A stretch of DNA of 64,000 nt from Acidothermaceae bacterium (GTDB taxonomy: Bacteria > Actinomycetota > Actinomycetes > Acidothermales > Acidothermaceae): assembly GCA_036510735.1 (NCBI GenBank), contig DATCDK010000240.1:3113-67112 (forward strand), written 5' to 3'. Position 1 is the stretch's first letter; each line of letters opens with the position of its first letter. The position numbers and the translations under genes are program-made. A model generated the notes under the pieces. That model ran no database searches. It worked only from the letters and a program-made list of their open reading frames with translations, and had not been told where the DNA came from. Shown piece by piece: positions 8,295-31,679 of the stretch.

Positions 8295-8337
8295 GAGGTC
8301 ATTTCTTTCAGCGCGGTTGTGGTGAGACCAGAGTGTA

Positions 8338-8352
8338 TTCCGCTGAACGGAA
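8338..8352. promoter_or_regulatory. Palindrome TTCCG-CTGAA-CGGAA in the pobA-ligK gap (lig operon promoter region)
   Basis: Sits in the 87-bp gap upstream of the ligK ATG (8294). Same TTCC-N7-GGAA architecture as sites at 15984, 16876 and 20429. GGAATTCC follows at 8353-8360. Confidence 0.3.
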
Positions 8353-8381
8353 GGAATTCCGTGTCGGTGTAGGCCTGCGAA

Positions 8382-9566
8382 CTACCGGTAGAACCAGTCG
8401 TGCTCGTACGGGAGCCCGGTGTAGTTCTCCGCCAGCGCTGTGGCCATCGCTCGCGAGGTGACGACGTAGTTGAGTTGTGAGAGGGCAAGCGCTTCGTCGA
8501 ACGGATCGTCCTCTGGTGACTTGTGGAGCGTGGTGGTCATCCACCACGAGAAGTGGGTCGCTCGCCAGACCCTGCGGCCCGCGGTCTCGGAGTACTCCGC
8601 GAGCAAATCCTCGCGGCCTGCGGCGTAGTAACCGCCGAGGGCACGGGCGAGCAGCCGGACGTCGGCGATCGCAAGGTTCATTCCCTTTGCGCCGGTCGGC
8701 GGGACGATGTGCGCGGCGTCGCCGGCCAAGTAGAGACGTTCGTACTGCATCGGGGTTGCGACAAAACTGCGCATCGGCGTGATGCCTTTGCTCACGATCG
8801 GACCTTCGGTGAGGGCAAAGCCCGAGTCGTCAGCCAACCGGGTGTGCAGCTCGGCCCAGATCCGATCGTCGGACCACTCCTCGAGCGACTCATCTGGGGC
8901 GACCTGCAAGTACATCCGGGTCACTGTTGGCGACCGCATGCTGTGCAAGGCGAATCCGTTTGCGTGACGTGCGTAGATGAGTTCGGCCGACGACGGTGGG
9001 GCCTCGGCGAGGATGCCAAGCCAAGCAAACGGGTAGCTTCGTTCGTAAGCAGTGAGGTTCGGTACGTAGCCGCGGCTGATGCCGTGGAACCCGTCGGTGC
9101 CGATCACGAAGTCGCACGCGACGCTCTGGCGATTGCCCTGATGCTCGAAGGTGACCCTCGGCTGCGCGGAGTCCAGAGCCTCCAACGCGACGTCACTGAC
9201 CTCGAATCGCAGGTCAGCGCCGTTCGCGATACGCGCTGCGATGAGGTCTTTGACCACCTCCTGCTGCCCGTACACCGTCACGTTGCGGCCGGTGAGTTCG
9301 ACGAAGTCGAGTCGGTGGGTCTTTAACCCGAAGCGCAGATTCGTCCCATCGTGCGGAAGTCCTTCGGCATCCATCCGAGCTCCGACACCGGCTTCGCGCA
9401 GTGTCTGCGCGCTGCCATGCTCGAGTACGCCGGCCCGCACGCGCTGCTCGACATACTCACGATCGCGCTGCTCCAGCACCACCGACTCGATGCCCTGCGC
9501 TTCGAGCAGTCTCGCCAGCAACAGCCCAGCCGGCCCGGCACCAACAATGCCAACTTGGGTACGCAT
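8382..9566 (-). CDS. pobA: 4-hydroxybenzoate 3-monooxygenase
   Basis: ATG 9566 (MRTQVGIVGAGPAGLLLARLL, FAD GxGxxG motif). 394 aa with YLAGDAAHIVPPTGAKGMNLA. TGATG 1-nt overlap with the upstream aldehyde dehydrogenase. Confidence 0.9.
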   Translation of the reverse strand: MRTQVGIVGAGPAGLLLARLLEAQGIESVVLEQRDREYVEQRVRAGVLEHGSAQTLREAGVGARMDAEGLPHDGTNLRFGLKTHRLDFVELTGRNVTVYGQQEVVKDLIAARIANGADLRFEVSDVALEALDSAQPRVTFEHQGNRQSVACDFVIGTDGFHGISRGYVPNLTAYERSYPFAWLGILAEAPPSSAELIYARHANGFALHSMRSPTVTRMYLQVAPDESLEEWSDDRIWAELHTRLADDSGFALTEGPIVSKGITPMRSFVATPMQYERLYLAGDAAHIVPPTGAKGMNLAIADVRLLARALGGYYAAGREDLLAEYSETAGRRVWRATHFSWWMTTTLHKSPEDDPFDEALALSQLNYVVTSRAMATALAENYTGLPYEHDWFYR

Positions 9567-11071
9567 CAGAACGGGAAGGCTCTCGGCTCGCTCCGCGATG
9601 TTATCCATTGAAGGTCGCAGAACTCTTCCGCCGCAAAGCCGACCCCGAACCGACCCCAGCCGCTGTCCTTCATGCCGCCGAACGGCATCTGTGGCTCGTC
9701 GTTCACGGTCTGGTCATTCACATGAATGATCCCTGCGTCGAGCGCGCGCGCCACAACCATGCCTTCTTCGACAGTGGCGGCCAGCACCGCCGCGCATAGC
9801 CCGAACCGCGACTCATTGGTCCGCCGGATTGCATCGGCTGCGTCATCGACAACGTCGATGATCACGACGGGGCCGAAGGTTTCATCTAGTGAGAGTTCAG
9901 CCTCCGGCGGCACGTCCGCGAGGATCGTCGGCGGGTAGCACGGTGGGCTTGCGACTCCGCCGGCGAGCACGCGGGCTCCAAGCGCGACGGCTTCCTCGAC
10001 CCGCCGGGTGATGAGCGACAACGCCCACCTGCTGATCAGCGGGCCGATGACGGTATGTGGATCGCGGGGGTCGCCCACAGGCAACTCCGCGACCCGCGCC
10101 ACGAGGCGTTGCGTGAACTGTTGCGCAATAGACCGCTCGACCAGTATTCGCCGTACGCACATACAGATTTGGCCCTGGTGAACGAAGGCACCGTACGCCG
10201 CGGCTTCGACTGCGTATTGCAAGTCGGCACCCGCGAGCACGATCAGCGGATTCTGCCCACTGAGCTGAAGAACCACGCGCTTGAGGTTGCGCCCAGCTGC
10301 CTCTGCGAGTCGACGACCGGTAGCAGTCGACCCGGTGAAGTTGATTCTGCGTACCAGCGGATTGGTGATCAATTCATCGCCGATCCCGCCAGCTTCGCCA
10401 GGCGCGTGCGTGACTACGTTGAGAACGCCCGCCGGCAATCCGGCGTCCTCGAAGAGCTGCGCCCAAAAGGTGCCGCCCGTCGATGGGGATTCCTCCGACG
10501 GCTTTAGCACCACGGTGTTGCCGAGTGCGAGCGGGCCAGCGATTGCGCGCCCCGCGAGCGTCAGCGACGCGTTCCACGGCGCGATTGCGCCGACCACGCC
10601 AACCGGTCTGCGCGTCGCTATCGCGTGCGTTCCGGGTACGTCTGACGGCAAGACTTGACCGGACGGCGAGTGCGCCAGGTTCGCGACCTGACGCAACAGC
10701 GACACCGCGAACTCGATCTGAATGTTGGCAAAATGCCGGCCGCATCCGGTTTCGACCGCGAGCTCGGCCACGACCGCAGGTCTGCGCCGCGAAAGGTCGT
10801 CGGCGGCGCGCAGGAACACCCTCTTTCGATCGTTGGGCGTCGTGGCCGCCCACGCCGGAAAGGCGTTGTGTGCCGCCTCGATAGCACGTCGCGCGTCATC
10901 GCTATCGCCGGCAGCAGCGGAAGCGATGACGGCGCCGTCCCATGGGCTGATGCTTTCGTATTCGCGACCACTGACGGAGTCGCACCACTGTCCGTCGATG
11001 TAGTGGCGAAGCCGCCTCGGCGGGTTGGACGGGCTGGCCGGAGGCTGCGTACTAACCGTGCTCGCTGACAA
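9566..11071 (-). CDS. Aldehyde dehydrogenase family protein with a non-canonical active-site motif (Gln in place of the general-base Glu)
   Basis: 501 aa, TTG start. Has IAPWNASL, FTGSTATGR and the catalytic-Cys motif FVHQGQICMCVRR. It reads VVLQLSGQNP where the two other ALDHs in this window read HLELGGNS and VLELGGSD. Confidence 0.85.
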   Translation of the reverse strand: MSASTVSTQPPASPSNPPRRLRHYIDGQWCDSVSGREYESISPWDGAVIASAAAGDSDDARRAIEAAHNAFPAWAATTPNDRKRVFLRAADDLSRRRPAVVAELAVETGCGRHFANIQIEFAVSLLRQVANLAHSPSGQVLPSDVPGTHAIATRRPVGVVGAIAPWNASLTLAGRAIAGPLALGNTVVLKPSEESPSTGGTFWAQLFEDAGLPAGVLNVVTHAPGEAGGIGDELITNPLVRRINFTGSTATGRRLAEAAGRNLKRVVLQLSGQNPLIVLAGADLQYAVEAAAYGAFVHQGQICMCVRRILVERSIAQQFTQRLVARVAELPVGDPRDPHTVIGPLISRWALSLITRRVEEAVALGARVLAGGVASPPCYPPTILADVPPEAELSLDETFGPVVIIDVVDDAADAIRRTNESRFGLCAAVLAATVEEGMVVARALDAGIIHVNDQTVNDEPQMPFGGMKDSGWGRFGVGFAAEEFCDLQWITSRSEPRAFPF

Positions 11072-12125
11072 CGCCGCCTCCCTCGTTCGCGATGACCGGT
11101 AGCTTCTCAGGTCGCGTGAGCCGATATCCGACGGGCAGCAGTTGGAAGTGCAGTCGATCGGTCAGCAGGCTCCACAGTCCTCTGGGCAGGAACAGTGCGA
11201 AGCCCATCGCGACCACACCAAGGCCGATGAGATACCAGGCGCCCTCGTCGGCAAAGTTGTATTGGATGACAAAGAACACGATGGCACCGATGATCGGCCC
11301 CTCGAAGGTGCCGAGGCCGCCGACGAGCACCATGAAGATCATGTACGCCGTGTACTGAACACCGAAGATCGACGTCGGCTGGATGAACGACGTGTTGGCA
11401 AGGATTAGCGCACCGGCGGCCCCGCAGCCGAAGCCCGCGAGCACGAACAGCAAGAACCGCAGCGGCCGGACGCGGACACCAACCGATGCCGCGGCCTCCT
11501 CGTCGTCGCGAATCGCCTGCAACGCCGCTCCGGTTCGTCTGCGCAGCAGCAAGAAGACCGAACCGAGCAGCAGCACCATGAACGCCAGAGACAGCCAATA
11601 GGTGTAGTCGCGGCGGTCGGTGATCGAGTACCGGTTCAGGCCGTGGAGCGAGATGCCCGAGCCGCCGCCCATGCTGTGATCGAGGGTGACGAGCAGGGCG
11701 AGCACTTCGGCGACGACCCACGTTCCGACCGCGAACTGTCCGCCGCGCAACGGCAGCACAAGGAGCGATTCGATCGCTGCCAGTGCCGCGGAGGCGAATG
11801 CCGCGATGACAACCGCCAGATACGGCGTCACGCCGTGCTGGGTCAAGAAGATGACGCTGTACGCGCCGAAACCGATGAACGCCTGTTGGCCGACAGAAAC
11901 CATTCCGCCGTAGCCAGCAAGGGCATTCCACATGATGGCGAGGATCAGAAACGTAAACAGGCTCGTCAGTTGCTGCACTGCGTTTGCGCCCATCACTTCG
12001 GGCACCAGGAACAGCGCAACCACAAGCACAAGCGATACGACAGAGGCGACGGCCGAAGCGCGCGTCGATCGTCGGACGAGCCACCCAGAGCTGCTCCCTA
12101 TCGGGCCGCCCCGCACGGTGGTCAT
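11052..12125 (-). CDS. Branched-chain-type ABC transporter permease (LivM-like)
   Basis: ATG 12125 with an ATGA overlap with the upstream permease. Multi-TM protein with LILAIMWNALAGYGGMVSVGQQAF and ALQAIRDDEEAAASVGV, which are typical of LivM. Confidence 0.85.
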   Translation of the reverse strand: MTTVRGGPIGSSSGWLVRRSTRASAVASVVSLVLVVALFLVPEVMGANAVQQLTSLFTFLILAIMWNALAGYGGMVSVGQQAFIGFGAYSVIFLTQHGVTPYLAVVIAAFASAALAAIESLLVLPLRGGQFAVGTWVVAEVLALLVTLDHSMGGGSGISLHGLNRYSITDRRDYTYWLSLAFMVLLLGSVFLLLRRRTGAALQAIRDDEEAAASVGVRVRPLRFLLFVLAGFGCGAAGALILANTSFIQPTSIFGVQYTAYMIFMVLVGGLGTFEGPIIGAIVFFVIQYNFADEGAWYLIGLGVVAMGFALFLPRGLWSLLTDRLHFQLLPVGYRLTRPEKLPVIANEGGGVVSEHG

Positions 12126-13000
12126 CTCGCCGTGCTCCGGCTCGCGAGGATGCGTCCTCGAGGACTCGCAAGGACCGCGAGAAATACGAGGTGGCCAGCG
12201 AGGATCGAGTACCGCGGGTCGATATTGGCTCCGATCGTTTGCGCAATGCCCAGCACGATGCCGCCGCCCAGCGTTCCCCACAGCGAGCCGAGCCCGCCGA
12301 TCACGACGGCTTCGAACGCGAAGATCAGCTGTGTCGGCCCGCTGGAGGGTTGAAACGTCGATCTAATGGCGAGAAACGCGCCGGCCAGCGTGGCAGTCGC
12401 CAGCGCGATCGCAGTGGCTTTGGCATATACCGACCACGCGGGGATGCCGACGAGCGCTGCAGTGTCGGGGTCGAGCGCCGTTGCGCGCATCTCCCGCCCG
12501 AAGGGCGTGCGGCGCAGCGTCAGTTGTAAACCGCCCAGTACAACGACGGCGAGCACGAGCACGAGAAGGCCGATGTAGGGGACCGCAAGTCGCGAATTGA
12601 TCACCCAGCTTTTGGTGGAGATCGTGCCGGCCTTCGCACCGAGCGAGCGAACATCCGGTGAGTAGGCCTGCAGCAGGCCGTTCTGGATCACGATCGACAG
12701 ACCGAACGTGGTCAGCAACGGGATTAACGGTCCGCCGCGCAGGCTGCGCGCCAGCACGCTGCGCTGCAGGACGTAGCCGAACGCGGCCATGATCGGGAGC
12801 ACCGGCAGGAGCGCGATGAACGGCGACACGTGGTAGGTGAACGAGACTTCCCACACCAGGAAGGCGCCGAGCACGGCGATGTCGCCGTGCGCGAGGTTGA
12901 TGATCCGCATGACGCCGAACATGAGTGACAAGCCGCACGCAAACAATGCATAGAGGCCGCCGAGCAGCAGGCCCTGCACGACGGCGTTGACCCAACTCAT
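12122..13000 (-). CDS. Branched-chain-type ABC transporter permease (LivH-like)
   Basis: ATG 13000 (MSWVNAVVQGLLLGGLYALFACGLSLMFGVMRIINLAHGD). ATGA overlap with the upstream ATPase. Confidence 0.85.
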   Translation of the reverse strand: MSWVNAVVQGLLLGGLYALFACGLSLMFGVMRIINLAHGDIAVLGAFLVWEVSFTYHVSPFIALLPVLPIMAAFGYVLQRSVLARSLRGGPLIPLLTTFGLSIVIQNGLLQAYSPDVRSLGAKAGTISTKSWVINSRLAVPYIGLLVLVLAVVVLGGLQLTLRRTPFGREMRATALDPDTAALVGIPAWSVYAKATAIALATATLAGAFLAIRSTFQPSSGPTQLIFAFEAVVIGGLGSLWGTLGGGIVLGIAQTIGANIDPRYSILAGHLVFLAVLASPRGRILASRSTAR

Positions 13001-19608: not shown

Positions 19609-20400
19609 TCACTGGTGTTCGGCGGTGAGTCGCTGACGTCGCAGGCCCTCAGCTATTGCGGCGGCTGCTGCCCTCATCGGCGGCACCGACTCGGTGATCC
19701 GCGGGCTGGTCAGCGGCGCGATCACGGCGACCGCAGCGACAACGCTGTCGCCGTCAACGAATACAGGCACGGCCAACGACGAGACCCCGAGCCGATGCTC
19801 CTGCGCGCTGCGCGCGACTCCCGTGCGCCGAACTTCGACAAGTTGGCGGCGGAGCACTCGTGGGTCGGTATTCGTGAACGGCGTGTGCTGCGTCAGTGCG
19901 GCCATCACCTCACTGACGACGTCGTCGCTCGCGTAACCGAGCAACGCCTTGCCGACCGCTGTGCAATGCAACGGGAGGAGCGCTCCGGGTCGATGCCGGG
20001 TTGAAACAGTCCGCGTGCCAGACAGACGCTCGACGACCATCGCACGCGATCCCTCGAGCACGGCAAGGTGCACGGTGTGGCCTGTTGCTGCGACTAGGTC
20101 TTGCAGATGCGGCTGGGCAACTTCGCGCAGTGTCGTTGGAGCTGAGAGCAGCCCGAGACGCCAGAGCCGGGCACCGATCGAGTACGCGCCGTCCGGGCTT
20201 CGGGTCACCAGCCGCGCGCCGACGAGCTCGGCAACGAGTCGGTGCGCAGTCGGCAGCGGCAGCTGCGCGCGCTGACCGATCTGCGACAGCGTCAAGCTCG
20301 GGTGGCTCTCGTCGAACGCGCCGAGGACAAACAGCGTCCGGCCGGCCGCCGACCGTGCGTCATCGCTTCGCCGTGCCGTCACCGCGTCCTCCCGTTCCAT
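19609..20400 (-). CDS. IclR family transcriptional regulator, divergent from the kinase/carboxylase operon
   Basis: ATG 20400, 263 aa. HTH LTLSQIGQRAQLPLPTAHRLVAELV plus an effector domain (LPLHCTAVGKALLG, AVAVIAPL). Confidence 0.85.
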   Translation of the reverse strand: MEREDAVTARRSDDARSAAGRTLFVLGAFDESHPSLTLSQIGQRAQLPLPTAHRLVAELVGARLVTRSPDGAYSIGARLWRLGLLSAPTTLREVAQPHLQDLVAATGHTVHLAVLEGSRAMVVERLSGTRTVSTRHRPGALLPLHCTAVGKALLGYASDDVVSEVMAALTQHTPFTNTDPRVLRRQLVEVRRTGVARSAQEHRLGVSSLAVPVFVDGDSVVAAVAVIAPLTSPRITESVPPMRAAAAAIAEGLRRQRLTAEHQ

Positions 20401-20428: not shown

Positions 20429-20445
20429 CTTCCACATCGTGGAAG
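20429..20445. promoter_or_regulatory. Perfect 17-bp palindrome CTTCCAC-ATC-GTGGAAG, candidate IclR operator
   Basis: 7-bp perfect arms in the 115-bp divergent intergenic region between the IclR gene (20400) and the operon start (20516). Confidence 0.4.
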
Positions 20446-20515
20446 GATCGCCTGACACCGCTCCCGCCAGGGGCCACGCTGAGCCCGAAAAGCCGAGCAG
20501 AGGGGACGACGCGTG

Positions 20516-22192
20516 ATGGCAGCGAGCAGGTATGACGCCGTCGTCGTGGGCGGGGGCCACCACTCGACGATCATCGCGCCCTACCTCGCACGCGCCGGCA
20601 TGTCGGTCGCCGTCTTCGAAGCGTCAGGGCGCCTCGGCGGAGCTGCGCTGAGCGGGCCCGGGCCAGCGCGGGGCTACACCATGAATCACTACTCGCATTG
20701 GACCCGCTTTTACTCCCATCCCGCCTACCGTGACTTCGACCTGCGCGCAGAAGGCTTGCAGTACGTCTTCCCCGAAGGTAACGAAGCGATGGTGTTCGAC
20801 GACGGCACTGCTTTCGTCGGGTGGTCGGCCAGTCGCGTCGTCGACGAATCCGGTTCGCAACAGCCCTGGGACGAGGGTCTTCGACGTACCGAAGCGGCCA
20901 TCAGAAGGTTCTCCGGCGTCGATGCCGACACGTACGTGCGGTTCCACGAGGCCTACGTCAAGGACTGGAAAGCGGCATTCGGACGGCACCGTTTCACCGC
21001 ACCAACTCCGTGGAGCACACCCGATCCGCTCGAGTCGCTGATGCGCGAAGGCGGCGTCATCGAGCCTGTGCACCAGTTCATGAGCGCGCGTCAGCTCGCG
21101 TACGATTTCTTCGAATCCGACGAACTCCGCACCCTCTTCATGCGAGCTGCAACGACCTCGACCGGCGCATTCCCTGACGACGTCATCGGGCTGCAAGGAC
21201 TCGTGCACGTTCTCGCATTGACGCTCTCGCTCGAACCGGCGGCGATAGCCGTTGGTGGCACCGGCGCCGTGACCGACGCGCTGGTCAGTGCGGGCCGGCG
21301 TCGCGGCGTCGAGTACTACACGCACGAGCCGGTCGCTGCGATTGTTCGGGGCGGAACCCGCGCCACCGGGATTCGGTTGGCAAGCGGAAGCGTGGTGTCC
21401 GCCGACCTGGTCATCAGCGGGCTCGGGGCGCCGCAAACGATCCTCGATCTCCTGTCTGACCTGCCGCTACCGCAGCGCGTCGCGCATCGGCTCCGCAATA
21501 TTCACTTCGACCGCGGTCAGTTGATCTGGATGAACGTCGCGGTTCACGAACTGCCCGACTACTCGGCTGCGAACAGTGACGCGGCAGTCGGCGAGCAGCC
21601 GCGGCTGTATTGGGGGCCTAAGGACCCCGACTGGCTTGCGACGAGGTACCAGGCCGAGATCATGACCAAGGGCTACTCGAGCCGATCGTTCGCGTTCTCT
21701 TCCGCCGACACCATTTGGGATCGATCGCGCGCCCCGGTCGGCGAACATCTCGTCGGTCTGGAGGAGTTCACGGCGCCCTTGCGACTGTTCGGTCGCGACG
21801 ACTGGAAGCGAATCGAACAGGAGGCTGTCGACACGATCATCGAACAGTGGCAGCGATACGCGCCGAATATGACGCGCGAGAATATTGCGTCCATTCATGT
21901 CGCGATGCCGCGCGACATCTTCGCGACACATCCGGACATGGCGGAAGGCGGGTATAGCCAGGGCAGCACAATCGCGAGCCAGCTCGGTCGCTTCCGCCCG
22001 ATCCCGGAGCTCTCGTCATACCGATCCGTGCTCGAGAACCTGTACATGTGCTCGTCGAGCATGCATTCCGGATCCGGCATCGGTCGTGGCAGCAGCCTTA
22101 ACTGCTGGCGGGCCATCGCGACTGATCTCGGGCTCGATGCCGAGGCCGACCTGCGCGCCACGACTTCCGCCGACGCTATCGGTCAATCGTGA
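20516..22192 (+). CDS. FAD-dependent oxidoreductase, phytoene-desaturase (CrtI)/amine-oxidase-like family
   Basis: ATG 20516 (GTG 20513 in the track). N-terminal dinucleotide fold YDAVVVGGGHHSTIIAPYLARAGMSVAVFEASGRLGG. C-terminal LYMCSSSMHSGSGIGRGS is typical of CrtI-like enzymes. Confidence 0.85.
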   Translation: MAASRYDAVVVGGGHHSTIIAPYLARAGMSVAVFEASGRLGGAALSGPGPARGYTMNHYSHWTRFYSHPAYRDFDLRAEGLQYVFPEGNEAMVFDDGTAFVGWSASRVVDESGSQQPWDEGLRRTEAAIRRFSGVDADTYVRFHEAYVKDWKAAFGRHRFTAPTPWSTPDPLESLMREGGVIEPVHQFMSARQLAYDFFESDELRTLFMRAATTSTGAFPDDVIGLQGLVHVLALTLSLEPAAIAVGGTGAVTDALVSAGRRRGVEYYTHEPVAAIVRGGTRATGIRLASGSVVSADLVISGLGAPQTILDLLSDLPLPQRVAHRLRNIHFDRGQLIWMNVAVHELPDYSAANSDAAVGEQPRLYWGPKDPDWLATRYQAEIMTKGYSSRSFAFSSADTIWDRSRAPVGEHLVGLEEFTAPLRLFGRDDWKRIEQEAVDTIIEQWQRYAPNMTRENIASIHVAMPRDIFATHPDMAEGGYSQGSTIASQLGRFRPIPELSSYRSVLENLYMCSSSMHSGSGIGRGSSLNCWRAIATDLGLDAEADLRATTSADAIGQS

Positions 22193-22932
22193 TGACGACC
22201 AAAGACCTCGATGGATCGCGGGTACTCGTTACTGGTGCCGCGCGCGGCATCGGCCGCGCCGTCGTGCGTCACCTCGTCGACTCCGGAGCATTGGTGTTCG
22301 CGGTCGACATCGACACTGCTGGCCTTGAACAGGCCTTCAGCCAGACCACCGTGTGTACCCGAACCTGCGACGTGTCCGACGAGGTACAGGTTGCGCAGGC
22401 CGTGGCAGGCGCCGCTGAAAAGCTCGGCGGACTCGACGGTGTCGTCAATAGTGCCGCCATCGTCGCGGTGACCCGCAAATCCGCGGAACACGTCGGGGTC
22501 TACGAGTTCAACCAGGTCATGGCCGTGAACGTGCGTGGACCGTGGCTCATCTACCGTGCCGCACTGCCGGTCCTCGCCGCCGCCGGTGGTGGCAGCGTGG
22601 TGAACCTGGCCAGCGAAGTCGCCTACAGCGGCTCGACGAACCTCGCGCACTACGTTGCTAGCAAGGCGGCGGTCGTCGGCCTGACCCGGGCACTGGCTCG
22701 CGAGGCTGGCGCCAACAAGGTTCGAGTCAACGCGGTCGCACCAGGATTCACCGATACCGAAGGCGCCCGGGCAATCGGCGACCCAGACAGTTACGACACG
22801 ACCACGACCCCACTCGGACGCGTCGGCTATCCAGACGACGTCGTGGGGGCGGTGGCTTTTCTGCTGTCCGCGGCGAGTGCCTTCATTACCGGTCAGGTGT
22901 TGCTCGTCAACGGCGGCCGCGTCATGGCATGA
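22192..22932 (+). CDS. Short-chain dehydrogenase/reductase (SDR)
   Basis: ATG 22192 (TGATG overlap) or GTG 22189 (GTGA overlap). Motifs VLVTGAARGIGRA and catalytic YVASK, with C-terminal ITGQVLLVNGG. Confidence 0.85.
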   Translation: MTTKDLDGSRVLVTGAARGIGRAVVRHLVDSGALVFAVDIDTAGLEQAFSQTTVCTRTCDVSDEVQVAQAVAGAAEKLGGLDGVVNSAAIVAVTRKSAEHVGVYEFNQVMAVNVRGPWLIYRAALPVLAAAGGGSVVNLASEVAYSGSTNLAHYVASKAAVVGLTRALAREAGANKVRVNAVAPGFTDTEGARAIGDPDSYDTTTTPLGRVGYPDDVVGAVAFLLSAASAFITGQVLLVNGGRVMA

Positions 22933-22984
22933 CGCCCAACAACTTCTAAGACCACAACGATTGCTCAGCCACGAGGAGACCGTC

Positions 22985-24829
22985 ATGACGTTAACCGAGG
23001 ACAGCACTTCAGTTCGCCGCTTCCCCGACCCGTACAGCATTCCAACGCCGGACGGCGCGCAGGGCTGGGAAGACATGTATCCGTACTACAACCGATTCCT
23101 CGAATCGCGCCGCGACCGCGACTCCAAGCGAACCTGGTTCCGCAACGGCATGCACTTCCCCGAGCCGATGCCGCCCTTCGACATCGTGACGTCAGATAGT
23201 GCCTTCATGAGCACCGGAGTGATGAACACCCGCGTCTTCGCGCTGCCGCCAGCGCTCGGCATCGATGTGCGCGTGCTCAACGGCTACGTCTACATGTCCG
23301 CCAATGGCGTCGAGAATCCGGAGGAGATCGGGCACCGCGCCGAGGAGTTCGCGGTGCGCGTCGGGTACTACTACCAGAACTGGCCGGACATCTACGCGAA
23401 GTGGGAAGCGAAGGTCAGAGCCGAGATCGCGAAGCTGCAAGCTGTCGCGATTCCTGCGCTTGGGGAATTCGAGCCGGTCGAAGATGTGCTCGCCAACCGG
23501 GGAGTGACGTCGTCGAACGATTTTCTCGTCGCGTACCAGGCGATCCTCGCGTCGCTTGACGCGGCCTGGAACCTGCACAGCGAGTTGCTCAACATGGGCT
23601 ACGCGGCTTACCTGAACTTCCTGATGATCCTCCGCGGTCATTTTCCGGAGATCAGCGACCAGTCGGTAGCGAAGATGGTCAGTGGCGTCGAAGTCTTGCT
23701 GTTCCGCCCGGACGACGAACTGAAGAAGCTGGCCGCGCTGGCGATAGAGCTTGATGTGACAGGACGATTCGCAGCGGGCCGGCTCGAGTCGTTGCGCGCC
23801 GACCTTGCCGAATCGGGAGCCGGCCAAAAGTGGAATGCGGCCTACGACGAATCGGCCGATCCCTGGTTCAACTTCTCCTACGGCAACGGGTTCTACCATC
23901 ACCATCGGAGCTGGAGCGACGACCCGACCTTCCCGCTGACGATCATCGCTGAATACATCGGGCGGCTGCAAAAGAACGAGGACCTGAGGCGGCCGCTGGA
24001 AGCTGTGAGCACCGAGCGCGACGCCGTGGTCGACCGCTACCGGTCGCTACTTGACGCGGACGACGTGCAGGCGTTCGACGAGGCGCTTGGCCTTTCTCGG
24101 GTCGTGTTCCCCTACGTCGAGAATCACAACTTCTTCATCGAACACTGGTACATGACCAAGTTCTGGAACAAGATGCGCGAGCTCAGTGAGGTCTTCGTTC
24201 GATTCGAGTTCTTCGCCGATGTCGACGACATCTTCTTCATGCGCCGAGCCGAAGTTGGCGACGCGCTGGTCGACGTCCAGATGTCCTGGTGTGGTGGCGG
24301 CGAACCCCTCGGTCCCGACTACTGGCCGAGCATTATCGAAGAACGTCGGCGCATTCACGCGGCACTCAAGCGATGGACGCCACCACCCGCATTGGGCCCG
24401 GCACCCGCCGAGATCGTCGAGCCAATGACGATCATGCTGTGGGGCATCACGGACGACCAGGTCAAGAGCTGGCTCGACGCGCAGAGCGGTGACGGCGTGG
24501 TCCGCGTGTTGTCGGGGTTCGCGGGCAGCCCTGGCGTAGCCGAAGGCCCGGCCCGCGTGGTCATGAGTCCGGGAGATCTCGACTTCCTTGTCGACGGCGA
24601 GATCCTGGTCGCACCGATTACGAGCCCCAGCTGGACGCCGGTGTTCGCGCGCATCAAGGGCGCAGTCAGCGACATCGGCGGGATCATGTGTCACGCGTCG
24701 ATCGTGTCGCGGGAGTACGGGTTGCCGGCAGTAGTCGGCACTGGCACGGCTACGGCGACGATCAAGACCGGGCAGATCATCAGGGTCGACGGCGACAAGG
24801 GGATCGTCACGATTCTTTCGGACTCATGA
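22985..24829 (+). CDS. PEP-utilising (swivel phosphohistidine) protein, phenylphosphate-synthase PpsA-like large subunit of a split dikinase
   Basis: ATG 22985 behind GAGGAG; the track extension to 22877 overlaps the SDR. 614 aa. The C-terminal mobile domain carries GGIMCHASIVSREYGLPAVVG (phospho-His motif). The roughly 500-aa N-domain is not a PEP/pyruvate TIM barrel, and the size matches Thauera PpsA as I recall it. Confidence 0.8.
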   Translation: MTLTEDSTSVRRFPDPYSIPTPDGAQGWEDMYPYYNRFLESRRDRDSKRTWFRNGMHFPEPMPPFDIVTSDSAFMSTGVMNTRVFALPPALGIDVRVLNGYVYMSANGVENPEEIGHRAEEFAVRVGYYYQNWPDIYAKWEAKVRAEIAKLQAVAIPALGEFEPVEDVLANRGVTSSNDFLVAYQAILASLDAAWNLHSELLNMGYAAYLNFLMILRGHFPEISDQSVAKMVSGVEVLLFRPDDELKKLAALAIELDVTGRFAAGRLESLRADLAESGAGQKWNAAYDESADPWFNFSYGNGFYHHHRSWSDDPTFPLTIIAEYIGRLQKNEDLRRPLEAVSTERDAVVDRYRSLLDADDVQAFDEALGLSRVVFPYVENHNFFIEHWYMTKFWNKMRELSEVFVRFEFFADVDDIFFMRRAEVGDALVDVQMSWCGGGEPLGPDYWPSIIEERRRIHAALKRWTPPPALGPAPAEIVEPMTIMLWGITDDQVKSWLDAQSGDGVVRVLSGFAGSPGVAEGPARVVMSPGDLDFLVDGEILVAPITSPSWTPVFARIKGAVSDIGGIMCHASIVSREYGLPAVVGTGTATATIKTGQIIRVDGDKGIVTILSDS

Positions 24830-25914
24830 CCTACATCAGGCGCTTCGGCGACCTGAGGCTCACCGATCGCCCTGACGTGGGCGGTAAGTGCGCCAGCCTC
24901 GGCGAGCTGATTCATGCCGGGATAGAGGTTCCCGACGGGTTTGCTGTCACGGCCGGCGCGTTCGAGGCCTTCAGGGATCAGGGCTCGTTGCGGGACGATC
25001 TCAAGCGCATTGTGCGCTCGGTCGACCCGAGCCGATCCAGCGATCTCGACGCTGCCCACACGGCGGCATCCGAACTCGTCGCGGCGACGCCGATACCGCA
25101 AGAGGTCGTTGATCAGATCGTGGCTGCCTACGGCGAGTTGTGCGAGGCCGCGGGCGACGAGGCGCTCCCCGTCGCCGTCCGGTCGTCCGGCATTTCAGAA
25201 GACGGTGACGTGACGAGCTTTGCCGGCCAGCAGGAGACCTACTTGTGGGTGGTGGGCGCGCACGACGTGATCGACAACGTCCGCGCGTGCTGGGCAAGTC
25301 TCTACACACCGCAGGCCATTGCCTACCGCTCCCAACTCCCCGAGGAGGTGGCGTTCGAATCGACGTTGATCTCCGTTGGCGTGCAGGCGATGGTCGACGC
25401 GGAGGTAGCGGGCGTCGCCTTCACCGTGAGCCCGCGAACCGGCGACCGGTCGGTTATGGCGATCAACGCAAGCTGGGGCCTGGGGCAAGCCGTCGTGTCC
25501 GGCGAAGTGACGCCAGACGAATACTGGCTGTCGAAGATCGGTCTCGACGTGACCAGCAGCACGGTCGCTCGCAAGACGATGCAGTGCGTCCCGTCGACAA
25601 CAGGTCGAGGTGTCATCACGATTCCGGTGCCCGACGATCAGCAGGACGTCGCGTGCCTGGCGCCTGAGTCGATCCGCGAGCTGGCGGACATCGCGATTCG
25701 GGTCGAGCAGCACTACGGCTGCCCGCAAGACATCGAATGGGCGAGGACGCGCGCCACGAACGGCAGGCCGGCGCGGATCGTGCTGTTGCAGTCGCGGCCC
25801 GAAACGAGCTGGAAGAAGCGACAGGCTGAATCGAGAGCAAAGACGGGATCCAGTGCCGCGGCTTCGTACCTTTCCGTGATCCAGAACGCGGGAACGGGAG
25901 TGCGCAAAGCGTGA
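24826..25914 (+). CDS. PPDK_N/ATP-grasp nucleotide-binding subunit, phenylphosphate-synthase PpsB-like
   Basis: ATG 24826 with an ATGA overlap with the previous gene. MTYIRRFGDLRLTDRPDVGGKCASLGELIHAGIEVPDGFAVT is the PEP-synthase N-terminal VGGKxASLGE motif. 362 aa. Confidence 0.8.
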   Translation: MTYIRRFGDLRLTDRPDVGGKCASLGELIHAGIEVPDGFAVTAGAFEAFRDQGSLRDDLKRIVRSVDPSRSSDLDAAHTAASELVAATPIPQEVVDQIVAAYGELCEAAGDEALPVAVRSSGISEDGDVTSFAGQQETYLWVVGAHDVIDNVRACWASLYTPQAIAYRSQLPEEVAFESTLISVGVQAMVDAEVAGVAFTVSPRTGDRSVMAINASWGLGQAVVSGEVTPDEYWLSKIGLDVTSSTVARKTMQCVPSTTGRGVITIPVPDDQQDVACLAPESIRELADIAIRVEQHYGCPQDIEWARTRATNGRPARIVLLQSRPETSWKKRQAESRAKTGSSAAASYLSVIQNAGTGVRKA

Positions 25915-26363
25915 GCAGTGACGCGTTGCCGAGTTGGCAGGATCTGCTTGCCCTCGTCGAGCATCTCGAGACCACTGACTTCGAGGATTTCGTCGTCGAG
26001 ATGCCCGGCCTCACCATTCGTGTGTCACGCCGTGGTCTCCCAGATGCAGTAGCCGTCATTCCAGCCGCGGTCATGCCGCCCGCCGGAGCCGATGAGCAGG
26101 TTGTACAACCAGGCGGTGTCGAGATCACCGCTCCGATCGTCGGCCTGTTCTTCCGACGACCGGCGCCGGACCAACCGCCTTTCGTTGACGTCGGGAATGA
26201 CGTCACCGTCGGTGCGACGATGGCGATCATCGAGGTCATGAAGATGATGGTGCCCGTCGAGGCGACTGTCGCCGGACGGATCGTCGCCGTGCTCGCGGAA
26301 GACGGCGACATGGTCGAGTCCGGCCAGCCGTTGTTCGTCGTCGACGCTAGCGGCGTCACATGA
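25911..26363 (+). CDS. Stand-alone biotin carboxyl carrier protein (AccB-like)
   Basis: GTG 25911 with a GTGA overlap. 150 aa. Biotinyl-lysine motif AIIEVMKMMVPVEA within a biotin/lipoyl-attachment fold (ITAPIVGLFF, GDMVESGQPLFVV). Confidence 0.85.
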   Translation: MSSDALPSWQDLLALVEHLETTDFEDFVVEMPGLTIRVSRRGLPDAVAVIPAAVMPPAGADEQVVQPGGVEITAPIVGLFFRRPAPDQPPFVDVGNDVTVGATMAIIEVMKMMVPVEATVAGRIVAVLAEDGDMVESGQPLFVVDASGVT

Positions 26364-27856
26364 GAACAGTCCGTCTGGTCGACACGAGTACGCGTGACGG
26401 CAACCAGAGCCTGTGGGGAGCGACCGGCCTCACGACCGGCATGGTCGAAGCTGTCGGCCCGTCCCTTGAGCGCGCCGGATTTCTCGCGATCGACTTTACG
26501 TCGTCGACCCATTTGTCGGTCGGCGTTCGCTGGCATCACGAGGATCCGTGGGAGCGAATACGGCGGATGCGCGCCGTCGTCCCCACGACACCTTTGTCGT
26601 TGATCACGACGGGTATGCGCTTCATGGCCTGGGACCGCTCGCCCGAGTCGGTGATGCGACTCGCGATGCGATCGCTGGCGAAGCACGGAATGCGGCGGCT
26701 GCAGGTATTGGAGCCGTCGAACGACGCCGCTGCCGCCAGCAAGGTCGCCCGGCTCGCGAAGGATGAGGGCATCGAGATCGTGGTCGCGGCCGTGACCTTC
26801 ACGGAGTCGCCCGTGCATACCGACAGCCTGTATAGCGAAGCGGCGGCGAAGCTTGCGAAAGATCCGGCGATTGACGCCGTCTATCTCAAAGACCCAGGCG
26901 GACTGCTCACGCTTGAACGAGCTGCCACGCTGATTCCGGAGCTTCGTGCCGCGGTCGGTGAGACTCCGCTTGAGTTGCACAGTCACTGCACGACCGGCGT
27001 TGCCCCACAGGTCTATGTGCTTGCCGCGCAGCTCGGCATCGACGTGCTGCACACCGCGATCGGCGCACTGAGCAACGGCACCAGCCAGCCGTCCGCGACC
27101 AAGCTCGTCGAGAACCTGAGTGCGGTCGGGATAGCTGTCGACGTCGACCTCGATGCGATCGCTGAGGCAGAGCGGCTCATCGGGCGTTTCGCCGAAAAAC
27201 AACATCTTGAGCCCGGTCGACCACTCGAGTACGACCTCAGCGTGCACCGTCATCAAGTTCCCGGCGGCATGATGGCGACCCTGCGTCGGCAGATGGTCGA
27301 GCTTGCGATGCCCGAGTTGTTTCCGCGAGTGCTCGAGGAAGTCGCGCTGGTACGCGCCGAACTCGGTTACCCCATCATGGTGACGCCCTACAGCCAGTTC
27401 GTTGGTAGCCAGGCGGTGCTCAACGTGATGAGCGTGCAGTCGGGCAAACCCAGATGGTCGCAACTTCCCGACGAGATCATCCGCTACGTGCTCGGGCATT
27501 TCGGACCACCGCCGGGCCCCATCGCCGACGTCGTCATGGAGCGCGTCCAGACCGCGCCACGCACCAAGGAACTCGACCTGCCGCTGCCTGACCCGACTAT
27601 TGATGAACTGCGCAACCGAGTCGCGTCGAGTCTCGGACATCAGGTTGGCGACGACGAGGTCGTGCTGCGTCTGGTGCTTCCGGGTGACCAACTTGATGCG
27701 ATCACCCGCCCTGCAGTCGCGTGGCACGACAATCCTGCGTCTGCAAGCACGTTCATCGCGGGCGTGAACGCGCTGCAAAAATGGCGGTCGATCAACGTTA
27801 CCCGTGGCACCGAACGCGTCGTCTTGAACCGCGCATCAGCACAGGAGGCGCCGTGA
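26360..27856 (+). CDS. Carboxyltransferase of the pyruvate-carboxylase-B / oxaloacetate-decarboxylase-alpha (5S) type, without a biotinyl domain
   Basis: ATG 26360 with an ATGA overlap. VDTSTRDGNQSLW (DTxxRDxxQS), YLKDPGGLL (carbamyl-Lys KDxxG) and LELHSHCTTGV (HxH metal site). 498 aa with no AMKM motif at the C-terminus. Confidence 0.85.
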   Translation: MRTVRLVDTSTRDGNQSLWGATGLTTGMVEAVGPSLERAGFLAIDFTSSTHLSVGVRWHHEDPWERIRRMRAVVPTTPLSLITTGMRFMAWDRSPESVMRLAMRSLAKHGMRRLQVLEPSNDAAAASKVARLAKDEGIEIVVAAVTFTESPVHTDSLYSEAAAKLAKDPAIDAVYLKDPGGLLTLERAATLIPELRAAVGETPLELHSHCTTGVAPQVYVLAAQLGIDVLHTAIGALSNGTSQPSATKLVENLSAVGIAVDVDLDAIAEAERLIGRFAEKQHLEPGRPLEYDLSVHRHQVPGGMMATLRRQMVELAMPELFPRVLEEVALVRAELGYPIMVTPYSQFVGSQAVLNVMSVQSGKPRWSQLPDEIIRYVLGHFGPPPGPIADVVMERVQTAPRTKELDLPLPDPTIDELRNRVASSLGHQVGDDEVVLRLVLPGDQLDAITRPAVAWHDNPASASTFIAGVNALQKWRSINVTRGTERVVLNRASAQEAP

Positions 27857-28752
27857 CCGTCCGACCCGCTGTCATGGACGCGGCACTTAAGACACGCCTC
27901 GCCGAGGTCGAGGGAGTCATCTTCGACGTCGACGGATGTCTCGTGCTGTCCGACAAACCTGGCGGCGACGGCGGGCTTGCCCTGCCCGGTGCGAGCGAGG
28001 CGCTCACCTGGTTGCGCGAGTCGGGCCGCCGTGTCGTCTTGTTCACGAATGCATCGTCGAAGACGCCGCACTTTCTCGCTGCGGGGTTGACGGCGATCGG
28101 TCTCGACGTTGCACCTGCCGATGTGCTGACGCCATCGGTCGTTGCTGCCGAACTTCTCCGCGCACGGTATCCGGGTCAGCCCGTCATGGCCTTCGGCGGG
28201 TCCGGGCTGCTCGACGTGCTGAAGAGCTACGACATCGAGCTGGTGCACCCGACCCTTGAAGGCAGTTCCAAGCAGCCCGCAGCGGTCATCATCGGGTGGG
28301 ACGTCGGCTTCGATCGCGATCGACTACAGATCGCGGCCGATGCGATCTGGGGAGGCGCGGACTTCTTGGTGACCAGCGACGCACGCCGATTCGCGACGCG
28401 TACGCGGCCGACCGTTGGCCTCGGGGGGTTCATCGCGAAGGGCCTCGCCTACGTGACTGAACGCGACTACGAAGTCGTGGGTAAGCCTTCGGAGGCCGCC
28501 ATGCAGGTCGCCTCAGCACGGCTCGGCGTCCAACCGTCACGCATGCTCGTCGCCGGCGACGACCTTACCCTCGAGATCCGGATGGGGCTTCAGGCCGGCG
28601 CGTTGTCGGCGCTGGTGACCACCGGCATTCACGGCGTCAACGACGTCGAGCTCGCGCAACCAGCCGACCGACCTGACCTCATCGTTGACGGCCTACCCGA
28701 GCTCATCGAAATTTGGCGCGACGCCGACGACACCTCCCCAGCCCGCGGCTGA
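27853..28752 (+). CDS. HAD-superfamily (subfamily IIA, NagD-like) phosphatase
   Basis: GTG 27853 behind AGGAGG, with a GTGA overlap. Motif I VIFDVDGCL, TNAS, and C-terminal VAGDDLTLEI. Confidence 0.8.
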   Translation: MTVRPAVMDAALKTRLAEVEGVIFDVDGCLVLSDKPGGDGGLALPGASEALTWLRESGRRVVLFTNASSKTPHFLAAGLTAIGLDVAPADVLTPSVVAAELLRARYPGQPVMAFGGSGLLDVLKSYDIELVHPTLEGSSKQPAAVIIGWDVGFDRDRLQIAADAIWGGADFLVTSDARRFATRTRPTVGLGGFIAKGLAYVTERDYEVVGKPSEAAMQVASARLGVQPSRMLVAGDDLTLEIRMGLQAGALSALVTTGIHGVNDVELAQPADRPDLIVDGLPELIEIWRDADDTSPARG

Positions 28753-30734
28753 TGGTCGAACCAGGGGAGGTGTTGTGGAGACCGGCTGACGACGCCAGGG
28801 ACACCTCGGCGCTCGGCAGGTTTCTTAGCCGAGCCGAATCCGTGACAGGTCTGCAGTTCGCCAACTATGAGGCCGCCTGGCGATGGTCGGTGTCGGACCT
28901 CGATACCTTCTGGCAGCTGGTGTGGGAACAGGCCGGGGTCATCGCCCACCGACAGCCGACAGCCGTGCTCGGACGACGAGAGATGCCGTTCGCGCAATGG
29001 TTTCCCGGTGCCACGCTGAACTACGCAGAGCACGCGCTGCGCGATCGCAGCTCCGCTGTCCGGGTGAAGGCGAGAAGTCAGACTCGAGCCTCGCAGGATC
29101 TAAGTGGCGCCGAACTGGCTGCACTCGTGGGCCGCGTGCAGCAAGGTCTGCGCCTGCTCGGTGTGAGCAGAGGCGATCGGGTGATCGGCTACTTGCCGAA
29201 CATTCCCGAAGCGCTCGTGACCTACCTTGCAGTCGCGGGTCTCGGCGCGATCTGGTGCAGTGTGCCGATCGAGATGGGGCCTCGCAGCGTGCTCGACCGG
29301 GTGGCCCAGCTTGATCCGAAAGTCCTGGTCTGCGTCGACGGATATCGCTGGGGCGAGCGCATCGTCCACCGCCGCGACCAAGCAGCCGAAATCTGCGACC
29401 AGCTGCCCGGCGTCCGCGTTGTCGAAGTTCCCTACCTCGATGCCCATGCCGAACCACCGGCGGAAGCGATCGCGTGGGCTGCATTCACGGCGACGCAGCT
29501 GCCCCCGACGTTTGAGGAGCTGCCGTTTGACCACCCACTGGTTGTGCTGTTCTCCAGCGGCACCACCGGTTTGCCCAAGGCGATCGTGCACGGCCATGGC
29601 GGCTTGCTACTTGAACACGCGAAGGCGCTGTCTCTGCAGATGGACGTCGGGCCGGGCGATGTCGGCTTCTGGTACACGACCACCGGCTGGATGGTCTGGA
29701 ACATTCTCGTGAGCGGGTTGGTCGTGGGTGCGACCATTGTGCTGTTCGACGGAGACCCAGCGTGGCCAGATCTCGGCGGTCAATGGGCCGTCGCTGCCGA
29801 GACGAAGGCGACCCTTTTCGGTACCAGCGCTGGGTATCTCGCGGCGTGTGCGCGATCCGACCTGCGGCCAGGGGCCAGCTACGACCTCGCGGCGTTGCGC
29901 GAACTCACATCGTCTGGCTCACCGCTGTCGGCGACAGCCTCGGAGTGGGTCTACGACGCAGTGAAAAGTGATGTACTCCTAGCGCCGACATCAGGCGGCA
30001 CCGACGTGTGCAGCGGGTTCGTTGGTGGCAGCTCACTCACGTCGGTGTATGCCGGCGAGATGAGCTGTCGGCCGCTTGGCGTCGCGACCGAGTCATTTGA
30101 CGAAGCCGGCAAGCCGCTGAGCGGCCGACCGGGCGAACTCGTGGTGACCCTGCCGATGCCGTCGATGCCGGTCGCCTTCTGGAATGACCCAGACGGTTCT
30201 CGTTACCGTGCCGCATATTTCGATACCTACCCCGGAGTCTGGCGACACGGCGACTGGATCATCCACACCGAGCGCGACACGTGGGTCATCACCGGTCGCT
30301 CCGATGCCACCCTCAACAGAGGCGGGGTTCGGTTGGGTACCGCGGAGTTCTACAGCGTGCTCGACGCGCTTCCCGAAGTAGCCGACAGCGTGGTGGTTCA
30401 TCTCGAAGACGACGCAGGGCACGGATCGCTCATCGCGCTGATCGTGGCGGCAAGCCCTACCGACGGGGACGACGACTCGTTGCGGTCAGCGATTACAGCG
30501 GCGATTCGAGGCCAGCTCTCACCTCGCCATGTACCCGACGCGATCGTGTTCGTGAACGCGTTGCCTCGAAACAACAACGGAAAACGGCTTGAGGTGCCCC
30601 TGAAGCGCGCCGCACAGGGCGTCGCGATCGACCAGGCGGTCGATCTCTCCGCACTCGACGATCCAGCAGGCTTTGTCAAGGCCGTCGCCGCGATTGCCGT
30701 CGCTGTCGCGGCGTTGTCGTCGGAGCCGGGATAA
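28752..30734 (+). CDS. Acetoacetyl-CoA synthetase-like AMP-forming beta-ketoacid-CoA ligase
   Basis: ATG 28752 with a TGATG overlap. N-terminal ALGRFLSRAE...YEAAWRWSVSDLDTFW is characteristic of acetoacetate-CoA ligases. AMP motifs FSSGTTGLPKAIVH, YGTSAG?-type core and RSDATLNRGGVRLG. Confidence 0.85.
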   Translation: MVEPGEVLWRPADDARDTSALGRFLSRAESVTGLQFANYEAAWRWSVSDLDTFWQLVWEQAGVIAHRQPTAVLGRREMPFAQWFPGATLNYAEHALRDRSSAVRVKARSQTRASQDLSGAELAALVGRVQQGLRLLGVSRGDRVIGYLPNIPEALVTYLAVAGLGAIWCSVPIEMGPRSVLDRVAQLDPKVLVCVDGYRWGERIVHRRDQAAEICDQLPGVRVVEVPYLDAHAEPPAEAIAWAAFTATQLPPTFEELPFDHPLVVLFSSGTTGLPKAIVHGHGGLLLEHAKALSLQMDVGPGDVGFWYTTTGWMVWNILVSGLVVGATIVLFDGDPAWPDLGGQWAVAAETKATLFGTSAGYLAACARSDLRPGASYDLAALRELTSSGSPLSATASEWVYDAVKSDVLLAPTSGGTDVCSGFVGGSSLTSVYAGEMSCRPLGVATESFDEAGKPLSGRPGELVVTLPMPSMPVAFWNDPDGSRYRAAYFDTYPGVWRHGDWIIHTERDTWVITGRSDATLNRGGVRLGTAEFYSVLDALPEVADSVVVHLEDDAGHGSLIALIVAASPTDGDDDSLRSAITAAIRGQLSPRHVPDAIVFVNALPRNNNGKRLEVPLKRAAQGVAIDQAVDLSALDDPAGFVKAVAAIAVAVAALSSEPG

Positions 30735-30739
30735 ACGTC

Positions 30740-31606
30740 TCAGAGCCCGAGCCACCGAGCGGCATTGTCTTTCAGGATCAGTGGTCGGACGTCAGCTGCG
30801 ATATCGAGCGCCTCGAAGTCGCCGAGCCACCGGTCGGGCGTAATCAGCGGGTAGTCCGAGCCGAACATCACCTTGTGCTTGAGTCGGCCATTGGCCGCCT
30901 GTACCAGCTGTGGCGGAAGGTATTTCGGTGACCAGCCAGACAAGTCGATCATCACGTTGGCCTTGTGCGTCGCGATCGAAATCGCGGCATCCTGCCAGGG
31001 CACCGACGGGTGAGCGAGCACGATCGACAGGGTCGGGAAGTCAGCGGCCACGTCGTCGATGAGCATCGGGTCGGAGAACCGGAGCTTGATCCCACGGCCG
31101 CCAGGTAGGCCGGCGCCGATCCCCGTCTGGCCGGTATGAAACACGATCGGGACGCCTAGGCCGGCCACCGCTTCGTAGAGCGGATACACATGGCGATCGT
31201 TCGGGGCGAAAGCCTGCAACGACGGGTGCAACTTGAGCCCGCGCGCGCCCGAGGCGACCAGATCGCGCAACTGGCTCACCGCGCTCGCCCCGTCATGCGG
31301 GTCGACCGAACAGAACGGGATCAGCACGTCGGCATGTGCGCCGGACTGGGCGACGATGTCTTCACTTGAGAGTGCTTTGTGCCCGGTGGCGGTGTGCGCG
31401 TCGACCGTGAACACCACCGCCAAGAGGTTCCGTTCGCGGTAGTACTGCGCGATGTCTTCGACGGTGGGCGTGCTGTTGACTGTGGACTTGAAATACTTCG
31501 ACGCGGCAGCGAGCAATTCGTCGTCCAGCGAGCGATTCCCATTGCCGTCGGCCTCGACATGGACATGGGTGTCAATGGCCCGCACGTTGGCAAGATCGAC
31601 GATCAT
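30740..31606 (-). CDS. Amidohydrolase_2 (TIM-barrel metal-dependent hydrolase/decarboxylase) family protein
   Basis: 288 aa with AIDTHVHVEAD (HxH), GLKLHP, VFHTG, VLAHPSVPW and FGSDYP. Convergent, 5 nt from the ligase stop. Confidence 0.8.
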   Translation of the reverse strand: MIVDLANVRAIDTHVHVEADGNGNRSLDDELLAAASKYFKSTVNSTPTVEDIAQYYRERNLLAVVFTVDAHTATGHKALSSEDIVAQSGAHADVLIPFCSVDPHDGASAVSQLRDLVASGARGLKLHPSLQAFAPNDRHVYPLYEAVAGLGVPIVFHTGQTGIGAGLPGGRGIKLRFSDPMLIDDVAADFPTLSIVLAHPSVPWQDAAISIATHKANVMIDLSGWSPKYLPPQLVQAANGRLKHKVMFGSDYPLITPDRWLGDFEALDIAADVRPLILKDNAARWLGL

Positions 31607-31679
31607 GCTCCGTGATTGTAGGGGTCGACATCTGCATCTGTGAGGAATCGAAGCGACGGTGGCTTAGGATCGTGGCCTG

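Follow-up and report, generated by a model that had tools for sequence, protein, structure and literature searches.

The Hpe pathway of Rhodococcus rhodochrous GD02 is encoded by the genes hpeHICBADEF (Dexter et al. 2022, PMC9618137). In this pathway, HpeHI phosphorylates 4-hydroxyacetophenone and acetovanillone (PMC9618137; for the kinase mechanism, PMC12167813), and HpeH alone carries out a reversible phosphotransfer (PMC12167813). The carboxylase HpeCBA accepts the phosphorylated ketone only; ATP, Mg and bicarbonate are required, and every turnover yields one ADP. HpeD removes the phosphate from the carboxylated product (PMC9618137). The acvABCDEF genes of Sphingobium sp. SYK-6 represent the same system, in which the gene of the biotin carboxylase (BC), acvD, is located between the biotin carboxyl carrier protein (BCCP) gene and that of the carboxyltransferase (CT) (Higuchi et al., bioRxiv 10.1101/2022.04.28.489975). 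Here we describe a gene cluster of this type, devoid of a BC gene, in a 64,000-nucleotide stretch of DNA from an Acidothermaceae bacterium (assembly GCA_036510735.1, contig DATCDK010000240.1), which is referred to as the window.

The cluster in the window resembles that of Rhodococcus in that it contains, in the same one-strand order, the genes of a dikinase (H and I), an AccB-type BCCP (C), a 5S-type CT (B), a NagD-like phosphatase (D) and an acetoacetyl-CoA-synthetase-like ligase (E), together with that of a CouO-like hydrolase (F). It differs in that HpeA is missing, the genes of a CrtI-like flavoprotein and of a short-chain dehydrogenase/reductase (SDR) are added in front, and F is on the opposite strand. 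The complete order is IclR (divergent), FAD oxidoreductase, SDR, H, I, C, B, D, E and then the convergent F, and all ten genes are intact. With Acv, whose carboxylation requires the phosphorylated substrate as in Hpe, the cluster shares the logic of kinase, BCCP, CT and phosphatase; however, the slot of acvD is empty in the window, which has an extra CoA ligase and hydrolase downstream. The nearest complete relative is an uncharacterised cluster of Blastococcus saxobsidens (locus L042), which matches the window gene for gene in its order, with identities of 59-78% (37-42% for HpeC), but keeps a 472-residue BC between C and B (L042:8565-9983). As far as can be judged from the sequences, the cluster represents the known Hpe/Acv pathway in a lineage new for it, as a variant without a dedicated BC that has recurred, and on present evidence no new kind of system is involved. 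Because of the acetoacetate-CoA ligase match, a carboxylase of acetone or methyl ketones acting through an enol phosphate was considered, but it was dropped once the cluster matched hpeHICBADEF.

Absence of a dedicated biotin carboxylase

The HpeC-like protein (150 residues, 25911..26363, plus strand) is an AccB-type BCCP recognised by Pfam Biotin_lipoyl (1.3e-16) and NCBIfam TIGR00531 (95 bits), and the HpeB-like protein (498 residues, 26360..27856, plus strand) is a 5S/PycB-type CT with HMGL-like and PYC_OADA domains. Consecutive genes overlap by 4 nt at the H/I (ATGA, 24826), I/C (GTGA, 25911), C/B (ATGA, 26360) and B/D (GTGA, 27853) junctions, so that there is no space for an extra gene between C and B. 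A genome-wide search with Biotin_carb_C (PF02785) gave three BCs, located on C298, C261 and C266, and none on the 69.6-kb contig to which the window belongs (C240). The domain matches, the overlaps and this search confirm the original prediction, made from the letters of the window, that a stand-alone AccB-like BCCP and a PycB-like CT are overlap-coupled in an operon without BC.

No hpeA ortholog was found in any of the 18 Acidothermaceae genomes compared, which include the unpublished G008, although no result rests on it. In none of these genomes does the best BC exceed 51% identity to Blastococcus HpeA (47% in the window genome). The BCs linked to such clusters in other actinobacteria show 60-74% identity to the same protein. 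In a BC tree built with FastTree, the 20 HpeA proteins of actinobacteria group as a single clade (support 100), with all three BCs of the window genome outside it. A dedicated BC of the HpeA/AcvD/XccA type, such as belongs to the Hpe/Acv pathway, was detected neither on the contig nor at the C/B junction, in the genome or in the 18-genome family. The cluster itself is present in 3 of the 18 genomes. Besides the window genome, two further species of the same genus, G012 and G016, carry it with the same BC-less order in independent assemblies; the G012 locus (L007) is 88% identical to the window at the DNA level from the I gene onward, and in G016 the whole cluster is collinear on a 443-kb long-read contig.

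With one genome scanned per species, 427 relatives of the CT were collected; the best 80 of the 427 loci were examined, and the window proteins were mapped onto these. In the actinobacterial clusters the usual order is H, I, C, BC, B, D, E. In the CT tree, a quick IQ-TREE reconstruction under posterior mean site frequencies (PMSF), the window CT pairs with that of L007 (support 100) inside a clade of 24 rows (support 100), the remaining 22 of which have an adjacent BC. The window HpeB lies inside the HpeB clade of actinobacteria, as an ortholog of HpeB/AcvE. Since the window lineage is nested among BC-bearing clusters, the absence of BC is the derived state, and this placement puts the clean loss of the dedicated BC in the ancestor of the Acidothermaceae genus to which the window belongs.

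Clusters without BC were also observed elsewhere. Three Thermomicrobium genomes (L028-L030, about 7500-12400) and a metagenome-assembled genome (MAG) of Thermoleophilia (L045, 6789-12270) contain H, C, B and D, the Thermomicrobium copies being also without an adjacent I gene, and these clusters branch at the base of the actinobacterial Hpe clade. In a Candidatus Dormibacteria MAG (L031:7077-12195), H, I, CT and phosphatase are accompanied by neither BC nor BCCP, and the cluster is flanked by a PaaK-like ligase and a Liv-type ABC importer; this genome contains one BC, and about 1 kb upstream of it, on the same strand, lies a gene with a biotinyl domain. To judge by these gene contents, outsourcing of BC is recurrent among Hpe-like clusters.

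Integrity of the carrier, the carboxyltransferase and their partners

HpeC contains an AccB-like N-terminal module and an intact biotinylation motif (IEVMKMM), and it aligns with the HpeC orthologs. Replacement by a foreign carrier was rejected because of this alignment and of the identity to sister lineages (42-47%, as compared to 47-52% among themselves). The original prediction had regarded a free-standing BCCP as unusual for Actinomycetota. This view is weakened, considering that every actinobacterial Hpe cluster examined carries one and that the housekeeping BC and BCCP of the family are also encoded by separate genes. In the genus of the window the biotinylation site reads EVMKMMVPVEA, and all other aligned orthologs have MKL after EV, EI or ET, mostly as EVMKLMN[PQ]V. 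The change to MKM might be an adaptation to a different BC partner.

The best NCBIfam match of HpeB is pyruvate carboxylase subunit B (281 bits, under the cut-off of the model). The protein is 69-71% identical to the cluster CTs of Blastococcus and Sphaerisporangium, and 57-58% to those of Rhodococcus. It keeps 133 of 133 clade-invariant columns, including DTSxRDGNQS, KDPGG and ELHxH, and its metal and substrate motifs are intact. Three conservative changes were found at sites that are invariant in all other sequences, as compared to one to six in BC-bearing sister lineages, and the branch of the window lineage is not lengthened in the CT tree. H, I and D also show no excess of substitutions at otherwise invariant sites with respect to the BC-bearing sister lineages, and in I none of these sites carries a lineage-specific change. 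Nothing in these sequences suggests a change of chemistry.

Two copies of a different 5S-type CT, 40-41% identical to the window CT, were found in another Acidothermaceae genus (G004:C305:7786-10450 and 23252-24427); one of them has an adjacent BC, and at this level of identity they resemble kinase-less BC and CT loci. An apparent CT-phosphatase fusion open reading frame in Blastococcus was discarded, since the two matches are in different frames and the supposed fusion is no more than a long frame that overlaps.

The ratio of nonsynonymous to synonymous substitution rates (dN/dS) was computed between the window and L007, with a dS of about 0.4 for the hpe genes. Values of 0.095, 0.146, 0.071 and 0.119 were obtained for the CT (B), I, D and E, respectively, and of about 0.07 for two unrelated neighbouring genes (Maf and Dus). 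HpeC gave 0.33 as a whole, with 0.11 in the N-terminal module, 0.76 in the linker and 0.32 in the biotinyl domain. By this measure, purifying selection acts on the genes that remain, and these are still used. The N-terminal module of E. coli AccB is the part that binds BC, and the conservation of this module in HpeC would fit with charging by a separate BC.

Source of the carboxybiotin

Since HpeA/AcvD was lost in the ancestor of the genus, BC activity would be supplied in trans. In our opinion, HpeC is probably charged by a resident BC, most likely the stand-alone BC encoded on contig C298. From orthology, we infer that the substrates are ketones of the 4-hydroxyacetophenone or acetovanillone type. 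According to this proposal, HpeHI would phosphorylate the phenolic hydroxyl group, the C298 BC would carboxylate the biotin of HpeC in trans and in an ATP-dependent manner, and HpeB would move CO2 from carboxybiotinyl-HpeC onto the acetyl methyl group. HpeD would then take the phosphate off, and HpeE and HpeF would turn the beta-keto acid, by way of its CoA ester, into 4-hydroxybenzoate or vanillate.

The ATP-grasp BCs that are candidates for charging HpeC are all encoded outside the operon. They are a stand-alone AccC-like BC of 462 residues on C298, in a locus with the order bioY, BC and 70-residue PRK05889-type BCCP (L004:603-2854, minus strand); an AccA-like fused BC-BCCP on C261; and, on C266, a BC-BCCP-ACC_central protein of several domains. 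The C298 BC is not fused to a BCCP and shows 76-97% identity across the family genomes, including those without the hpe cluster, and its type is the sole BC found in one 99%-complete, single-contig family genome of 2.4 Mb. This family-wide conservation, together with the neighbouring 70-residue BCCP, indicates that it is a housekeeping enzyme already serving a separate carrier. That it could be a relocated hpeA was rejected, because it is 47% identical to HpeA, falls outside the HpeA clade and is kept in family genomes devoid of hpe. For Actinomycetota, it is fused alpha subunits of the AccA type that are usually described, and a stand-alone housekeeping BC departs from these. In mycobacteria, AccA3 is a shared BC that serves AccD4, AccD5 and AccD6. 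The arrangement proposed here would be similar in that one BC serves several carboxyltransferases; it would differ in that the BCCP of the AccA3 type is fused to the shared BC, whereas here the BC would charge a separate, pathway-specific carrier of the AccB type.

Several observations weigh against charging of HpeC by the C298 BC. The biotinyl domain of HpeC, with its dN/dS of 0.32, is less constrained than the other proteins. The TTCC-N7-GGAA palindrome read from the sequence between the IclR gene and the operon (TTCCACATCGTGGAA, at about 20430-20444) has 28 matches in the genome, none of which is on C298 or upstream of bioY-BC. The C298 BC is not dedicated, since it is found in congeners without the hpe cluster, and it already has its own 70-residue BCCP partner; the AccA-like fused BC on C261 may be an alternative donor. 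Moreover, the window genome is 91% complete, and the partnership between the C298 BC and HpeC is one that we infer.

Carboxylation by HpeC and HpeB could instead proceed independently of any BC, either by transcarboxylation (with oxaloacetate as the donor at the 5S-type site itself, or with malonyl- or methylmalonyl-CoA as the donor by way of an AccD-type CT of the genome) or by means of carboxyphosphate derived from the phospho-histidine of HpeH or from the aryl phosphate. Such a route would agree with the repeated loss of the BC gene and retention of the CT among Hpe-like clusters, with the presence of AccD-type CTs in the genome and with the phosphotransfer that HpeH alone performs reversibly (PMC12167813). 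However, the characterised ortholog is strictly ATP-dependent, with one ADP per carboxylation (PMC9618137). Furthermore, HpeB, HpeH and HpeI have no more changes at invariant sites than their BC-bearing sisters, the CT branch is not lengthened, and the operon contains no 12S-type CT gene (Carboxyl_trans), as a transcarboxylase of 12S, 5S and 1.3S subunits would have, the AccD-type CTs being located on other contigs only. The strong conservation of the HpeC N-terminal module, which in E. coli AccB is involved in BC binding, also argues against this route, which we consider unlikely. In particular, it seems quite unlikely that the BC-less pair arose repeatedly as an enzyme that carboxylates the phosphorylated aryl ketone using oxaloacetate, as the carboxyl donor at a site like that of pyruvate carboxylase, or the energy of the HpeH phospho-histidine or of the aryl phosphate. 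A carboxylase that is disabled or repurposed, as a decaying relic, in the decarboxylating direction or in some other role, would be in line with the occurrence of the cluster in only 3 of the 18 family genomes, with the relaxed biotinyl domain of HpeC (dN/dS 0.32) and with the state of the G012 copy. The latter is broken upstream of I, as similarity to the window on its contig C61 (L007/L095, 1-1465) begins only inside hpeI, and is without the HpeF-like hydrolase gene (window 30717-31653; around 7316-7323 in G012). This state is due either to a rearrangement or to an assembly break of the MAG, and HpeH of G012, on a separate contig, is 96% identical to that of the window. Frameshifts occur in most cluster genes of G016, and these are read as sequencing error rather than decay. 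Against a disabled enzyme stand the ten intact genes of the window, the intact biotinylation motif and CT metal and substrate motifs, and the dN/dS of 0.07-0.15 of B, I, D and E over a dS of about 0.4, accrued after the loss of BC. In addition, OAD_beta (PF03977) has no match in the 91%-complete genome, which excludes a sodium-pumping decarboxylase of the OadABG type. Considering all this, a disabled or repurposed enzyme appears rather improbable.

It could also be supposed that a dedicated hpeA is hidden in the unassembled part of the genome and that the enzyme is a usual carboxylase of three parts whose locus is split. The window genome, a MAG of 298 contigs with a completeness of 91%, leaves room for this. 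However, the three congeners with the BC-less cluster (91, 90 and 83% complete) are all without a BC more than 51% identical to HpeA, and it is very unlikely that the gene was missed by chance in all of them, since the product of their missing fractions (0.09 x 0.10 x 0.17) is about 0.002 if the gaps are independent. As no other family genome has such a gene either, we regard a hidden hpeA as extremely improbable.

The original prediction had offered four explanations for the missing BC, and these fared differently. A BC borrowed in trans is now the best supported one, with no hpeA ortholog in the 18 family genomes and a conserved stand-alone BC on C298; the proposed genome search for accC-like or orphan BC genes, once run, returned three BCs, of which one is stand-alone (C298) and all lie outside the HpeA clade. 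That the BC is located outside the window held in so far as housekeeping BCs are encoded elsewhere in the genome, but a dedicated, co-regulated one was not found, the palindrome being absent upstream of bioY-BC. A transcarboxylase or decarboxylase gained no positive support, given the absence of OAD_beta and of any shift of the CT at conserved sites, nor did activation by the ATP-grasp/swivel-His kinase, HpeH and HpeI being without unusual substitutions. As a whole, the interpretation is partly supported: it included the BC in trans, but it did not name the known Hpe/Acv pathway with its ATP-dependent, three-part carboxylase (PMC9618137).

Other genes of the cluster and significance

The HpeH-like kinase subunit (22877..24829, plus strand), the true start of which is probably near 22985, contains the swivel-His domain of PEP-utilizers (PF00391, residues 573-642) and matches NCBIfam PRK08296 with 757 bits. 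It is 57-76% identical to the H proteins of BC-bearing actinobacterial clusters, and its role as a kinase subunit is taken from previous work (PMC9618137; PMC12167813). The HpeI-like subunit (362 residues, 24826..25914, plus strand) is of the ATP-grasp, PPDK_N type (PF01326, 1.7e-100). H and I together show 49-76% identity to their counterparts in those clusters, and as swivel-His and ATP-grasp subunits they correspond to the two-component dikinase of the Hpe/Acv pathway. The HpeD-like protein (27853..28752, plus strand), the gene of which is preceded by AGGAGG, is a HAD-IIA phosphatase of the NagD type (Pfam Hydrolase_6 and Hydrolase_like; TIGR01460), as expected for the pathway, and is 40-62% identical to its counterparts in BC-bearing actinobacterial clusters. 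The HpeE-like protein (28713..30734, plus strand) is a beta-ketoacid-CoA ligase of the acetoacetate-CoA ligase family (NCBIfam PRK03584, 813 bits; 69% identity to the Blastococcus protein). The HpeF/CouO-like Amidohydro_2 hydrolase (30740..31606, minus strand; PF04909, 1.2e-46), convergent with HpeE, is 55-65% identical to F proteins encoded near related clusters.

The divergent regulator gene (19609..20400, minus strand) encodes a protein of the IclR family (Pfam IclR_C and HTH_IclR), and an IclR gene is found at the same position in related clusters. The front of the operon consists of a CrtI/amine-oxidase-like FAD oxidoreductase (20513..22192, plus strand; Pfam Amino_oxidase and DAO), with 78 and 72% identity to the Blastococcus and Virgisporangium cluster proteins, respectively, and of the SDR (22189..22932, plus strand; Pfam adh_short_C2, 7e-57), with 68% identity to the Blastococcus one. 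In the loci examined, the CrtI-like flavoprotein was otherwise found only in the closest clusters, those of Blastococcus, Virgisporangium and Microbacterium (inverted in the last), and the SDR next to it is shared with the Blastococcus cluster. This front end (window 20513-22932) suggests a subclade-specific step producing the ketone substrate.

The Hpe/Acv pathway is under engineering for lignin valorisation, and expression in E. coli failed in both founding studies. If the cluster needs no BC of its own, its carboxylase module would be a minimal pair of BCCP and CT drawing on the BC of the host, which would simplify heterologous expression. If no BC were needed at all, it would represent a new way of charging biotin, in an ATP-saving, self-priming variant. 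The cluster would also provide a natural test of the specificity with which BC and BCCP recognise each other, as one housekeeping BC would serve both a 70-residue carrier and a carrier of the AccB type.

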